The notes beneath the pieces were generated by a model that worked only from the letters and a program-made list of their open reading frames with translations, searched no databases and was not told the origin of the DNA. 64,000 nt of DNA, from the sequence record SRR31156797_201; one strand, given 5' to 3'. Position 1 is the stretch's first letter; every line of letters starts with the position of its first letter. Of this stretch, positions 54,904 through 59,466 are shown in pieces. A program made the translations under genes and the position numbers.

Positions 54904-56067
54904 TTAAATTGAGTCTATTTCATTTGAGAATATCGAGCTAGCAATATCTCTTAAATTATATCTTGATGCCATTGCCTCGCCATAGGCTCCTGTAGTTCTT
55001 ATGGCAATTAAATCATTCCTTTTAGTTGCAGGCAAATCTACAGATTTACCAAAACAATCGGATGATTCGCAAATAGGTCCAACCACATCATATTTATCTA
55101 TAGAACCATTTGAACTAATATTTTCAATTTTGTGATAGGCTTGATAAAGTGCAGGTCGTAATAATTCTGTCATTCCAGCATCTAAAATGGCGAACTTGGT
55201 GTTTACACCATTTTTAACGTAAAGAACTTTAGAAATTACACTTCCACACTGGGCTACAACCGAACGTCCTAGTTCAAAATGAAGTTCTTGCTTTGGTTTT
55301 AAATTCAAAAATTCATCAAAGATTCCAAAGAATGTTGGAAAATCAGGAATCGGATTTTCATCCGGATTTTCATAATCAACTCCAAATCCTCCTCCTACAT
55401 TAATATGGTCTACGAATACTTGTCGGTTGGTAAACCATTCCTGAATTTCATTAATTCTTAAACAAAGACCTTTAAAAACACTTAAGTCGGTTATTTGAGA
55501 TCCAATATGAAAGTGTAAACCAATTAGTTTAAGGTTTTTTAGGACTTGCAGATTTTCTAAAACACTTTCAAATTCCCATCGATTAATTCCAAATTTATTT
55601 TCTTCGATTCCAGTTGTAATGTAATGGTGTGTATTGGCATTTACATTCGGGTTGATACGAATGGCAATTCTTGCTGTCTTACCCGCTTCTTCTGCCAATT
55701 CGTTAATCAATTCCATTTCTGGTATCGATTCACAATTGAAACAAAAGATATCAGAATCAAGAGCAGTTCGAATTTCTTTATCTGATTTACCTACACCTGC
55801 ATAAACGATCTTATCCGATGTAAATCCACATTCTAAAGATCGGTTGATTTCATTACCACTCACACAATCGGCACCAAATCCATAGGATTGAATTTTTTTC
55901 ATGATACCATGATTTGCATTTGCCTTTACGGCATAGTGAACATGATATCCATACTTAGAGGATTCGGTTTGAATTGTATTAAGAGTTTGCTCCAAAATAT
56001 TCATATCATAGAAATAGAATGGAGTATCTATATTATTGAATTTTTCTATTCTCTTACTGTTGAACAT
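54904..56067 (-). CDS. lysA: Diaminopimelate decarboxylase
   Basis: YAVKAN (PLP Lys), HFHIGSQ, NVGGG, ELGR, RPALY and GPICESSD. Confidence 0.95.
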   Translation of the reverse strand: MFNSKRIEKFNNIDTPFYFYDMNILEQTLNTIQTESSKYGYHVHYAVKANANHGIMKKIQSYGFGADCVSGNEINRSLECGFTSDKIVYAGVGKSDKEIRTALDSDIFCFNCESIPEMELINELAEEAGKTARIAIRINPNVNANTHHYITTGIEENKFGINRWEFESVLENLQVLKNLKLIGLHFHIGSQITDLSVFKGLCLRINEIQEWFTNRQVFVDHINVGGGFGVDYENPDENPIPDFPTFFGIFDEFLNLKPKQELHFELGRSVVAQCGSVISKVLYVKNGVNTKFAILDAGMTELLRPALYQAYHKIENISSNGSIDKYDVVGPICESSDCFGKSVDLPATKRNDLIAIRTTGAYGEAMASRYNLRDIASSIFSNEIDSI

Positions 56068-56094: not shown

Positions 56095-57405
56095 TTAGAA
56101 CAAATGATTACTTAATGCCTGAAGAGCAGCAATCTTATCTTCCTGATTTACTAAAACAGAGATGTTGTGCTTGCTTCCGCCATATGAAATCATACGCAAA
56201 GGGATATTTTCAAGAGCACCCAAAACTTTCTTAGCACTTCCTGCTGATTCCGAAATAAAATCACCAACAATACAAATAATTGATTGATTTTGATCTATTT
56301 CAACACTTCCGTATTTAGCCAATTCGCTTTCTATTTCCTTCAAATTCGAATCATCATCAATGGTTAAAGAAACGGCAACTTCCGATGTGGTAATCATGTC
56401 TATCGGAGTCTTGTAAATTTCGAATACTTCAAAAACTTTGCGCAAGAATCCGTAAGCTAAAAGCATACGACCTGATTTAATTTTGATTGCTGTAATTCCA
56501 TCTTTAGCAGCAATAGCTTTAATCCCTTTTCCAACCAGATCATTGGAGATTAAGGTTCCTGAATCTGTTGGACTTAGAGTGTTTTTTAAGCGTACAGGTA
56601 CACTTTGTGATTTACAAGGCATGATACTGGAAGGGTGCATAATTTTAGCACCAAAATAGGCTAACTCAGCAGCTTCGTCGAAGGATAATTGTTCAAGTGC
56701 TTTGGTATTTTCAACATATCTTGGATCGTTGTTGTGAAAACCATCTATATCAGTCCAAATTTGAACCTCTTCTGATTGCAATACAGATCCTATTAATGAG
56801 GCTGTGTAGTCACTTCCACCTCTCTTTAAATTGTCGATTTCGCCATAAACATTTCTACAAATAAAACCCTGGGTAATGTATAATTTGTGTTCTGTTTCTT
56901 CGCTAAGAATTCGGTCTAAATTTTCTTTGATATAGAAATAATCTGGTTCACCATCCTTATCTATTCTCATGAAATTTAGAGCAGGTAGGAACACTGAATT
57001 AACTCCAGATTCTGACAAATAGTAGTGAAACATAGCAGTTGAAATCAATTCTCCCTGAGCCAAAATCGCCTTTTCCTGAAGTGTGGTAAAGCTTCGGAAA
57101 ACAAAATTTCGGATGTAATTAAAATGAGATGTAATTAGCTCATTTCCTTTTGATTTATATTCTTCACTTGCATATAAATCGACTATTCTTTCTCGATATT
57201 GCTGTTCTAACTCAGTGATCTTTTCGTTAGCTAAATCATTCTGTTCCTGATACAATAGTTCCGTAATTTCAACCAGAGCATTTGTGGTTCCTGCCATTGC
57301 TGATAAAACGATAATTCTGGACTCATCCGCCTGGACGAGTTGAGCCAAATTTTTAATTCTCTCAGGCGATCCTACTGATGTTCCGCCAAATTTTAAAACT
57401 CTCAT
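56095..57405 (-). CDS. lysC: Aspartate kinase (monofunctional, two ACT domains)
   Basis: KFGGTSVG, RGGSDYTA, WTDIDG and ELAYFGAK. Confidence 0.95.
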   Translation of the reverse strand: MRVLKFGGTSVGSPERIKNLAQLVQADESRIIVLSAMAGTTNALVEITELLYQEQNDLANEKITELEQQYRERIVDLYASEEYKSKGNELITSHFNYIRNFVFRSFTTLQEKAILAQGELISTAMFHYYLSESGVNSVFLPALNFMRIDKDGEPDYFYIKENLDRILSEETEHKLYITQGFICRNVYGEIDNLKRGGSDYTASLIGSVLQSEEVQIWTDIDGFHNNDPRYVENTKALEQLSFDEAAELAYFGAKIMHPSSIMPCKSQSVPVRLKNTLSPTDSGTLISNDLVGKGIKAIAAKDGITAIKIKSGRMLLAYGFLRKVFEVFEIYKTPIDMITTSEVAVSLTIDDDSNLKEIESELAKYGSVEIDQNQSIICIVGDFISESAGSAKKVLGALENIPLRMISYGGSKHNISVLVNQEDKIAALQALSNHLF

Positions 57406-57489
57406 TGGTTAATAGTTTTTTGTAATCCAATTCAATTGGAGTGTTTGTTATTGTATTTGCTTTACTATGTTTTTTAGAATTATAAGTTC

Positions 57490-57520
57490 AAAAAAAGCCT
57501 GCAGAATTTCTGCAGGCTTC
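57490..57520 (-). terminator. Leader (attenuator) terminator upstream of lysC
   Basis: Minus strand GAAGCCTGCAG-AAATT-CTGCAGGCTTTTTTT, about 85 nt before the lysC ATG. Confidence 0.85.
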
Positions 57521-57561
57521 TATATTTTATGAGCGTTACATTATTCTACATACAAGTTTTA

Positions 57562-57618
57562 TCACAACTGTTTATTGCGTTTAATCTGTTTCTTGTGTTT
57601 GTAAACTAATATCGTCAT
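57562..57618 (-). CDS. Putative Lys-rich leader peptide MTILVYKHKKQIKRNKQL
   Basis: ATG preceded by A-rich AAAAAAAGAG; 5 Lys codons within the 10 codons at positions 7-16; lies just upstream of the leader terminator. Confidence 0.7.
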   Translation of the reverse strand: MTILVYKHKKQIKRNKQL

Positions 57619-57728
57619 CTCTTTTTTTTAATTTCTGATGTAAAGATGTATAAAATCCGAACAAAAACAATGAAATATTTTCAAATTGTTAAAAAATTAA
57701 CTGAAAATTATTTTTCAAACGTTTTAAA

Positions 57729-58073
57729 TTAAAATAGAATTCCATTCCAGCCCCAAAAGCCTCTTGGCACATCCATAAATTCAACATACACTCTGTCTTT
57801 CGGAATTTTTAGTTTCTCTTCAGCCAAACACGCAAACTTATTCGATAAATCTTTTGTTTTAGTATCTGGTAATCCGATACTTTTTAGTTGAAGAAAAATG
57901 GCTGGATCATTCATTCCTCCTAAGGTCATCTCAATTTTAGGCTCAAATGCTGTCATTACATATTTCTCTGGTTTTCCCAGTTCGAAAGAAATTAATGTGG
58001 AGCATTCTTTCAGAAAATCTTGTTGTTTTCTGCTTGAAAAACTTTTGTTAGTTTGAACTTTTAAATAGGGCAT
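57729..58073 (-). CDS. MIF/phenylpyruvate tautomerase family protein
   Basis: N-terminal Met-Pro, LGKPEKYV, KSIG, DRVYVEF and WGWNG. Confidence 0.88.
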   Translation of the reverse strand: MPYLKVQTNKSFSSRKQQDFLKECSTLISFELGKPEKYVMTAFEPKIEMTLGGMNDPAIFLQLKSIGLPDTKTKDLSNKFACLAEEKLKIPKDRVYVEFMDVPRGFWGWNGILF

Positions 58074-58206
58074 ATGTAAAAGTTTTAAGGTTAAGAATCA
58101 ATTGTATAAAGATCTTTAAATAGGTGTTATTCGAAGTAATTTCTCTGAATAACAAGGCATAAGTTATTATTTAATCATCTATTTACAAAATTAAGGAAGT
58201 TCTTCT

Positions 58207-58563
58207 TTAATTGGATTCTAGTTCCGTTTTAGCATTTTCAACGGTCTTTTTCGAGTTGCCAATAAATATTTTATCATTGATTAAAAGGACTGGTCGTTTC
58301 AAAAATGTGTATTCAGATAGAATGTAATTCTTATAATCATCTTCGGTTAAATTTTGATCTTTAAGTCTAAGTTCTTTGTATTTCATAGCGCGGCGGCTAA
58401 ATAAACTCTCATAAGAACCGGCTAGTTTAGCCATCTCTTCCAATTGTTCAGATGTTATTTTATCCAATTTAATGTCTTGTTGGATAAAATCAGAATCTAA
58501 ATTCAATTCTTTAATAATACGTTGACAAGTTGAACAATTTCCAAGGTGATATATTTTCTTCAT
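58207..58563 (-). CDS. ArsC/Spx/YffB family thioredoxin-fold protein
   Basis: CSTC and LKRPVL motifs. Confidence 0.85.
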   Translation of the reverse strand: MKKIYHLGNCSTCQRIIKELNLDSDFIQQDIKLDKITSEQLEEMAKLAGSYESLFSRRAMKYKELRLKDQNLTEDDYKNYILSEYTFLKRPVLLINDKIFIGNSKKTVENAKTELESN

Positions 58564-58569
58564 TTTCTT

Positions 58570-59466
58570 TTATTTACTATTACTTATTATTTTATCTATA
58601 ATTTCTTCTACTTGTTTTAGGTTTTTACTTTGAGTCTGGATCGCGAAATATTTGTCGTAATATGTGGTTTGCACTCCTTGCCACAATTCCTTAATTGTTC
58701 CTGTTTCTATCAATTCATTGCAAACACTTAAAGGTAACAAACACAAACCTTCGTTTTGTTGAATTGCGCTTAGAATTGCAGTAAGGTTTGGAATAACATA
58801 CCTGGGTTTAAAATATGGACGTTTTTTGAAATTGTCTATCCAAAATGATTTAATGGTTTCCATTTTATGAGAATAGGAGTACCAATTTTGTTCGCTAAGC
58901 CATTTTTCAGCTTCATCTATTTTTTTTTCATAAATAAAGCGATTAAAAGGAACTGTGTCTAAATCTTTACTACATATTAAAATCACTGCTTCTCTGCACA
59001 AATGTCTGTATTCAATGTTTTGATAATTGTGTTGTAGTGTGGTAATAATTAAATCCAGTTGCTTTTTGAATAATTTATCCTGTAGGTTCTCGGTTTCTCC
59101 AAAAGTGAACTCAACATTCATGTCTAGTTGATCCAATATGGATGCAAATGCATAACTAAACATTTCCATGGGCATTCCAACTCTGGCTGTAGGTCTGTTT
59201 TTTAAGGTTCTTCGTTTAAAATTCTCTTCGGTTTTTTCCAATCTTATTATGGCATCTTCAATTTGATTGTACAACTGAATTCCATGAGGTGTTGGTAACA
59301 TTTTACGAGGTTTACGCTCAAATAATTTTACTCCCATATAAGTTTCGAGTGCGGTAAGCTGTTGACTAACTCCAGGTTGTGTAAGAAGTAAAGTTTCAGC
59401 TGCACCAGTTAATGTGCCTCGTTCATATATTGCTTTAAATGTTCTGTACCATTCAAGATTTACCAT
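58570..59466 (-). CDS. LysR family transcriptional regulator
   Basis: TLTGAAETLLLTQPGVSQQLTALE...LFER HTH. Confidence 0.93.
   Translation of the reverse strand: MVNLEWYRTFKAIYERGTLTGAAETLLLTQPGVSQQLTALETYMGVKLFERKPRKMLPTPHGIQLYNQIEDAIIRLEKTEENFKRRTLKNRPTARVGMPMEMFSYAFASILDQLDMNVEFTFGETENLQDKLFKKQLDLIITTLQHNYQNIEYRHLCREAVILICSKDLDTVPFNRFIYEKKIDEAEKWLSEQNWYSYSHKMETIKSFWIDNFKKRPYFKPRYVIPNLTAILSAIQQNEGLCLLPLSVCNELIETGTIKELWQGVQTTYYDKYFAIQTQSKNLKQVEEIIDKIISNSK

Follow-up and report, generated by a model that had tools for sequence, protein, structure and literature searches.

A probable lysine-codon attenuator in the leader of lysC-lysA in a relative of Marinifilum, and its counterparts in Bacteroidales

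Described leaders of amino-acid genes and the leader of lysC-lysA

Leader-peptide attenuation is a textbook mechanism and has been described for tryptophan, histidine, phenylalanine, leucine, threonine and isoleucine/valine. Here, we analyzed a 64,000-nucleotide (nt) stretch of DNA from sequence record SRR31156797_201 (hereafter the window, to which all positions refer), in which the genes lysC and lysA, read from the minus strand, follow a leader with a short upstream open reading frame (uORF) rich in lysine (Lys) codons and an intrinsic terminator. This leader is probably a ribosome-mediated transcription attenuator, which would sense the lysine supply through the speed of Lys-codon translation and set the read-through into lysC-lysA. 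From sequence reading and modelled folding, we infer that the uORF is translated, that ribosomes stall at its Lys codons and that an alternative hairpin then relieves termination.

The enterobacterial trp, his, thr, leu, phe and ilv attenuators are alike in that a promoter-proximal short open reading frame (ORF), rich in codons for the end product, stands before a biosynthetic operon. They also share with the leader three mutually exclusive pairings, regulatory codons within segment 1 and a stop codon at which a terminating ribosome would lie over segment 2. Unlike in these systems, the amino acid here is lysine, the host belongs to the Bacteroidales and the Lys codons are spaced instead of forming one run. 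A further difference concerns segment 2, which pairs with the 5' arm of the terminator only in the enterobacterial attenuators, but with both arms in the genus of the window.

Within the Bacteroidetes, the Bacteroid-trp element (RF01692) contains an ORF with tryptophan codons. It resembles the leader described here as a candidate leader of an amino-acid biosynthesis operon in this phylum and differs from it in amino acid, genes and sequence; Table 1 of PMC2864571 lists it as a candidate cis-regulatory leader of such an operon. 'Strong clues' of leader-peptide attenuation upstream of amino-acid operons are mentioned for Flavobacterium psychrophilum in a passage of PMC9723704, and small ORFs reminiscent of leader peptides for Bacteroides thetaiotaomicron in a passage of PMC7366714. 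The closest described case with Lys codons is SEP5 of Sinorhizobium meliloti, a small translated ORF in which six Thr and three Lys codons cluster, located in the 5' untranslated region (UTR) of an aspartate dehydrogenase gene, for which the authors suggest a leader peptide (PMC10117765). SEP5 is similar in placing Lys codons upstream of an aspartate-metabolism gene, within its 5' UTR, but it mixes Thr and Lys codons, precedes a different gene and comes from another phylum; the passage on it contains neither a terminator nor an alternative structure.

For lysine genes, the RNA-level control named in a passage of PMC1262725 is the L box, next to attenuators for histidine, threonine and phenylalanine. 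The lysine riboswitch (RF00168) likewise regulates lysC, with premature termination under plentiful lysine, as is proposed here. Its five-helix aptamer was not found at the leader, so that sensing would fall to the ribosome instead of the RNA. This agrees with the initial annotation, which had seen no lysine riboswitch before lysC: in 57300-57850, a permissive Rfam scan up to E=10 detected neither RF00168 nor the T box nor Bacteroid-trp, and the whole window contained no Rfam match at gathering score. Sub-threshold scores in 57300-57850 stayed below the respective gathering scores (Leu_leader 23.3/50, Thr_leader 20.4/55, Trp_leader 15.4/41), and the sub-threshold alignments of MicC, SpF39 and Leu_leader rest mainly on the terminator, which is the only part covered by the Leu_leader alignment shown. 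A description of a lysine leader-peptide attenuator was not found in the literature searched, which covered few subscription journals, so that an earlier description is possible; PMC6429828, PMC2211319 and PMC4833913 contain nothing on the subject. What is apparently new here is the application of leader-peptide attenuation to lysine, its presence in Bacteroidales and the unusual antiterminator geometry in the genus of the window, within a mechanism class that is known.

The uORF and the competing hairpins of the leader

The initial annotation had placed a promoter, an 18-codon uORF with five Lys codons, a terminator and lysC in this order, and each element was found again on reading the sequence. 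The leader comprises the following features:

57641..57670, minus strand: predicted promoter of Bacteroidetes type, with TTG at 57670-57668, a 19-nt spacer and an 8-nt -7-like box at 57648-57641 (sequence reading)
57562..57618, minus strand: predicted leader uORF, ATG at 57618, 18 codons plus stop codon at 57564-57562 (sequence reading and conservation)
57592..57618, minus strand: segment 1, the 5' strand of helix P1, comprising the start codon and codons 2-9 with Lys 7 and 9 (minimum-energy folds)
57563..57579, minus strand: small inner hairpin over codons 14-18 and the stop codon (folding)
57528..57556, minus strand: segment 2, the 3' strand of P1 and 5' strand of the antiterminator, beginning 6 nt past the stop codon (folding)
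57497..57553, minus strand: antiterminator hairpin, 57553-57528 with 57522-57497, -13.9 kcal/mol (folding with terminator pairs penalised)
57490..57519, minus strand: intrinsic terminator, 11-bp stem 57519-57509 / 57505-57495, 3-nt loop and seven U to 57490, -17.5 kcal/mol

The consensus of Bacteroidetes promoters is TTG / TAnnTTTG. Between 57760 and 57380, the box at 57648-57641 is the sole -7-like box with a TTG 17-21 nt upstream, and the same motif scan found no TTG/-7-like promoter motif between the leader terminator and lysC. Related loci show similar boxes at the same distance before the uORF, and leaderless loci have them directly before lysC. An A-rich stretch of 22 nt lies between the end of the box (57641) and the ATG of the uORF (57618); Bacteroidales use little or no Shine-Dalgarno pairing, and translation initiation in their phylum is unlike that of E. 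coli.

The Lys codons of the uORF stand at positions 7 (57600-57598), 9 (57594-57592), 10 (57591-57589), 13 (57582-57580) and 16 (57573-57571), which gives five AAA/AAG triplets in frame and none in either of the frames +1 and +2. In a codon alignment of 18 Marinifilaceae uORFs, the shared ATG precedes a K-[RHP]-[NKY]-K core by 9-13 codons, the exceptions being the loci (numbered with L throughout) L012, with 7 codons, and L017, which is coreless and unanchored; an in-frame stop codon follows 2-10 codons past the core in all 18. Three columns of this alignment hold Lys in 17 or 18 of the 18 uORFs, with Arg in L007 as the exception. Both AAA and AAG are used in these columns; in L016, two of the three carry AAG, as against AAA in its relatives. 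Lys is retained here through synonymous changes, and adjacent codons change their amino acid across the 18 leaders (Q/L/H/E, I/Y/N, R/H/P and N/K/Y between the Lys columns).

The leader of 161 nt folds with -36.6 kcal/mol, compared with -19.9 +/- 3.3 kcal/mol in 200 shuffles (z -5.1). Its minimum-energy fold contains P1, in which 57618-57592 pairs with 57556-57529 through 23 pairs in five helices, so that the pairing of segments 1 and 2 expected from the initial annotation is present and longer than claimed. As a duplex, P1 reaches -15.6 kcal/mol, against -7.6 +/- 2.6 kcal/mol for shuffles of segment 1 (p=0.008). The antiterminator engages the 5' arm of the terminator through 57534-57532 and 57540-57537, and the loop end together with the 3' arm through 57550-57543; its -13.9 kcal/mol compares with -6.3 +/- 2.2 kcal/mol in spacer shuffles (p=0.005). 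P1, antiterminator and terminator (-15.6, -13.9 and -17.5 kcal/mol) are mutually exclusive, as they share segment 2 and the terminator arms. The folding of the alternatives, which the initial annotation had named as a check, is thereby in favour of both P1 and an antiterminator.

The antiterminator is a different one from that first envisaged. Segment 2 had been proposed to pair weakly with the 5' arm of the terminator, but the best duplex of the upstream 70 nt with this arm, at -5.4 kcal/mol, is no better than shuffles (mean -5.5, p=0.52), and the proposed pairing was therefore replaced by the hairpin that segment 2 forms with both terminator arms. From the 1:2 / 2:3 / 3:4 logic of classical attenuators, the three exclusive structures are retained and the proposed 2:3 pairing is not, since the antiterminator is a longer hairpin on both arms. 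With this correction, the main interpretation of the initial annotation, a ribosome-dependent lysine attenuator in the place of a lysine riboswitch, is supported by the sequence. RNAalifold on a MAFFT alignment of the leaders found the terminator and no other structure, because the uORF part is out of structural register in this alignment.

The order in which the structures would form was modelled in two ways. Stepwise folding used a growing transcript and a 30-nt ribosome footprint centred on Lys 10. Here, the pairing with the 5' arm is the minimum-energy structure once this arm is made and spreads onto the emerging 3' arm; the terminator overtakes the antiterminator only at the last 3-6 nt of the 3' arm of its stem. 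In addition, a switch table was made from transcripts cut 4 nt before the stem end, again with a modelled 30-nt ribosome footprint. In the window, a modelled stall at Lys 7, 9 or 10 leads to the antiterminator, and the free RNA or a ribosome at the stop codon leads to the terminator.

Following these models, the attenuator would work as follows. Transcription would begin a few bases past the -7 box, and a ribosome would load on the A-rich leader and translate the uORF behind the polymerase. With plentiful Lys-tRNA, the ribosome would reach the stop codon and mask the beginning of segment 2; after its departure, segments 1 (codons 1-9) and 2 would form P1. Either way, with segment 2 occupied by the ribosome or by P1, the terminator would form and transcription would end at 57490. 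With scarce Lys-tRNA, a stall at Lys 7, 9 or 10 within segment 1 would block P1, and the free segment 2 could pair with the 5' arm of the terminator and then with its 3' arm, as each emerges. The long, weak-based hairpin would replace the terminator stem, and the polymerase would read into lysC-lysA.

Conservation of the leader and rival explanations

The initial annotation had suggested looking for a Lys-rich uORF and a terminator before lysC in related genomes. We defined the module, within 450 nt upstream of lysC, as a terminator-like hairpin preceded by an ATG frame that is 8-45 codons long, contains at least 3 Lys codons and ends at most 60 nt before the hairpin. It was found in 21 of 80 related genome loci, namely all 17 of L001-L017 plus L019, L024, L042 and L051; the sequence of L027 ends inside the element. 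Among 301 genomes sampled from the order, lysC matches at E<=1e-100 occur in 106 (107 matches), and nine of the 90 upstream regions examined contain the module (L081, L091, L101, L107, L137, L161, L162, L172 and L175). From 78 usable metagenome loci, the automatic rule picks 14, leaving about 11 after L226 and L234 were judged false and L230 doubtful; in L226, the 'uORF' resembles the end of the upstream gene. By the same rule, a uORF with at least 3, 4 and 5 Lys codons precedes 22, 19 and 13 of the 30 terminators at most 450 nt upstream of lysC, compared with 34, 14 and 8 of 239 other terminator-like hairpins of the same 80 loci, an excess that is to be read as enrichment and not as a probability, because the lysC rows are phylogenetically related. 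Judged by sequence, three genera retain the predicted Lys-rich uORF with its terminator before lysC, and other Bacteroidales have it in unrelated sequence forms.

Two further kinds of locus were observed. In L082, a terminator lies 22 nt before lysC and no ATG uORF is present, so that the locus was excluded from the module count; a TTG-started frame with three consecutive Lys codons overlaps its -7 box, and this leader may be decayed or differently initiated. Loci of Prolixibacteraceae type (L050, L059, L062, L069, L071, L074 and L076) have no Lys leader and show a conserved block of ~25 nt in the 5' UTR, within the last 40 nt before lysC, which is a candidate for a separate regulatory element.

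The genomic context of the leader bears on whether the hairpin belongs to lysC at all. Upstream of the leader (57729-59466, minus strand), co-directional genes encode a LysR-type regulator, an ArsC-family protein and a MIF-family protein (Pfam). The MIF-family gene (58073-57729), which Marinifilum and Labilibaculum both have upstream in the same direction, ends 210 nt before the leader hairpin; no hairpin of its own was found between it and the leader, and some MIF transcripts may therefore end at the attenuator. The hairpin might then serve only to end the transcript of the MIF-family gene (or of a small RNA or small-protein gene), with lysC using its own downstream start and no regulation taking place. 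We regard this as highly improbable. It would fit the shared direction and the missing hairpin of the MIF-family gene, as well as an RNA-library contig that extends from this gene to about 57623-57650. However, the hairpin stands 210 nt past the stop codon behind a promoter-like site, no such site lies between it and lysC, and the Lys enrichment, P1 and the antiterminator would be left unexplained. The same module is also present before lysC where the nearest upstream ORF is on the opposite strand (L024, L042 and L051) or where a separate terminator lies further upstream (L013, L017 and L024), which argues that the hairpin belongs to lysC. Seven RNA runs contain part of the window, and four were compared with it as assembled contigs, which in one run cover 57406-57528, 57499-57616 (no difference) and 57623-58100 and in another stop at 57650; they were not used as evidence, because starts, ends, strand and level are invisible in contigs.

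The switch from terminator to antiterminator is most regular in the closest relatives. In all eight Marinifilum leaders, the switch table gives terminator pairs when the RNA is free or has a ribosome at the stop codon, and the antiterminator with zero terminator pairs when a ribosome sits on the Lys cluster of segment 1. Compared with shuffles, the antiterminator reaches p=0.005 in the four Marinifilum leaders tested and falls below 0.05 in L016 (0.015), L187 (0.02) and L015 (0.045). P1 has p<0.05 in 9 of 19 leaders, comprising 5/5 from Marinifilum, 3/3 from Labilibaculum and L187. Across 22 sequences, antiterminator pairs can form in 84.7% of 391 cells, compared with 31-52% for slid partners, a count favoured by the drawing of the structure from one of the aligned sequences. 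The terminator pairs form in 98.7% of 237 cells in the same number of sequences. In L183, one terminator base pair is altered on both arms, and the segment 2 partner of the 3' arm is altered to match. Segment 2 is the best-conserved block of the leader after the terminator. A hairpin similar to the small inner one is present in relatives, where its changes, as read from alignments, are one-sided only.

Outside this group, six lineages (L051, L107, L137, L161, L162 and L172) have leader sequences unlike that of the window and a strong classical 2:3 antiterminator. Its energy is -13.1 to -17.1 kcal/mol (p 0.002-0.016), and the strand that pairs with the 5' arm of the terminator lies in the last uORF codons or just past the stop codon, where a terminating ribosome would cover it. 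Reading the sequences of L137 and L161 side by side, a synonymous change of a Cys codon in the pairing stretch is matched in the 5' arm, and L238 retains the pairing of its relative L051 despite different amino acids. In L042, the free RNA has the antiterminator as its minimum-energy fold, which disappears when a ribosome is modelled at the stop codon. The 2:3 antiterminator is non-significant in L091 (p=0.17) and L175 (p=0.21); L024 was left out of this comparison, because the wrong hairpin had been picked for it. These independent leader forms are the strongest argument that selection acts on the Lys-rich frame and the ribosome-dependent choice of hairpin. The two architectures look related: a classical one, in which a strand in the last uORF codons pairs with the 5' arm, and a perhaps derived one in Marinifilum, in which segment 2 pairs with both arms and the terminator is turned inside out. 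The uORFs of L137 and L161 are long, with 39 and 41 codons, and have a common N-terminal stretch with N-K-R that resembles the core of the Marinifilaceae peptide. This likeness hints at a common origin of both architectures.

The independent forms also bear on two rivals to Lys-codon attenuation. In the first, the leader RNA itself would be another kind of sensor, either a riboswitch of a new kind that binds lysine or a site where an RNA-binding protein recognises repeated A-rich units, and the uORF would be incidental. It would account for the nucleotide conservation of segment 2, terminator and central uORF block across three genera, for the strong structure of the leader (z -5.1) and for the A-rich units that recur every 9 nt. 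We nevertheless consider it very unlikely: no Rfam family matches, the leader is one long hairpin plus a terminator with no multi-helix pocket, and ATG, frame and in-frame stop codon are retained in all 18 aligned leaders despite insertions and deletions. Moreover, the unrelated leaders share just a Lys-rich ORF and an antiterminator at its end, which binding of a ligand or a protein does not predict.

The second rival keeps a translation-dependent attenuator and replaces Lys-tRNA charging by another signal, be it general translation stress or an arrest peptide with the motif K-x-x-K-[RH]-N-K that senses free lysine or another ligand in the tunnel. The conservation of this motif and of its 3-codon spacing goes beyond the need of a simple codon counter, the distant L107 has a similar K-Q-V-K-R-I-K stretch, and segment 2 is not freed by the modelled stalls at the later Lys codons. 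On the other hand, L051, L091, L042 and L172 keep only the richness in Lys and the position of the antiterminator, with no motif, and the motif itself is variable at its non-Lys residues. As in classical attenuators, segment 1 contains the first Lys cluster, and the nucleotide conservation of the block could equally be explained by the inner hairpin. An arrest peptide or a stress signal is, in our view, unlikely.

Several observations weigh against a lysine attenuator of the proposed form. At equilibrium, the minimum-energy fold of the Marinifilaceae leaders is always the terminator, even with a masked ribosome footprint, and the choice of structure must therefore be kinetic. Only the last 2 nt of the terminator stem lie beyond the 3' strand of the antiterminator, whose base is weak and rich in A-U and G-U pairs; as a hairpin beside the U run, the antiterminator may itself terminate to some degree. 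Modelled stalls at Lys 13 or 16 give the terminator and no read-through. In none of 12 Marinifilaceae leaders do the 70 upstream nt form a significant duplex with the 5' arm alone (p 0.19-0.87). A clean switch is absent from the switch table for the four Labilibaculum leaders, L012, L014, L015, L016 and L017, and L013 switches for Lys 4 only. The antiterminator has p values of 0.06-0.11 in L012 (0.06), L183 (0.06), L009 (0.10) and L014 (0.11) and of 0.20-0.40 in L013, L017, L181, L185, L184 and L006, and P1 is non-significant in eight leaders of the Ancylomarina group, L012, L017 and L181. Covariation is thin, because the blocks are almost invariant: three pairs have changed on both sides in the terminator and three in the antiterminator, where 5/500 shuffles reach that count. 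The AAA/AAG triplets summed over ten lineages treated as independent (54 / 21 / 18 in frames 0/+1/+2) are partly circular, as the uORF is by choice the ATG frame with the most Lys codons. In addition, the K-x-x-K-[RH]-N-K block is highly conserved as nucleotides too, for which an RNA-level constraint is possible. Finally, the support is wholly computational.

Downstream genes and significance of the leader

The genes and elements downstream of the leader are:

57426..57440, minus strand: small hairpin between terminator and lysC, in the 5' UTR of the read-through transcript, -4.2 kcal/mol (folding)
56095..57405, minus strand: lysC, aspartate kinase of 436 amino acids (aa) (Pfam AA_kinase and ACT; NCBIfam asp_kinases 295.8 bits, cut-off 208.7)
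54904..56067, minus strand: lysA, diaminopimelate decarboxylase of 387 aa, 27 nt after lysC (Pfam; NCBIfam lysA equivalog 383.6 bits, cut-off 297.9)
54893-54865, minus strand: terminator-like hairpin after lysA

The ATG of lysC, at 57405, is located 84 nt downstream of the leader terminator. By their NCBIfam assignments, the genes behind the leader are lysine-specific: lysA scores above its equivalog cut-off, and the top-scoring model of lysC is lysine-sensitive aspartokinase 3, with 381 bits under a cut-off of 455. The window is, on its sequence, from a relative of Marinifilum; its lysC protein shares 98% identity with the one from an uncultured Marinifilum, 82-90% with proteins of other Marinifilum and Labilibaculum and 72-75% with proteins of Ancylomarina and further Marinifilaceae.

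The Marinifilum flexuosum genome (G002) contains four aspartate-kinase homologues, namely the lysC orthologue, an open frame whose 822 aa are typical for a kinase with a second, fused domain, and two of about 420-445 aa, and only the lysC orthologue has the leader. A BLAST search of three relatives' genomes for a second copy of the leader found only the lysC copy; a 19-nt exact match in G002 sits within a coding region and was rejected as chance.

The 5' UTR shows two further elements. An A/U-rich stretch of 10-12 nt right before the lysC ATG (about 57406-57418, minus strand) is nearly identical in the Marinifilum, Labilibaculum and Ancylomarina leaders and may be a translation-initiation context. 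A hairpin like that at 57426-57440, about 20-28 nt before the lysC ATG, is present in L002, L006, L007, L008 and L019 with differing stem sequences, whose changes look compensatory by eye.

Altogether, we find the arguments about evenly balanced as to whether these leaders represent the first lysine-specific leader-peptide attenuator family, which would take the role of the L box in part of the Bacteroidales, with two related-looking architectures and with a K-x-x-K-[RH]-N-K motif that perhaps has an extra peptide or RNA function. If so, lysine would fill a gap among the amino acids read by leader peptides. The leaders would explain how the entry into lysine synthesis is controlled in Bacteroidales that have no L box near lysC; in 20 related leaderless loci, an Rfam scan found no L box near lysC either (0/20). 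They would also show an antiterminator rebuilt in evolution, from pairing with the 5' arm only to pairing with both arms, and could join the RNA-family libraries, as genome annotation now misses them. For the phylum, the leader of lysC-lysA would provide a clean test system for the coupling of transcription and translation.

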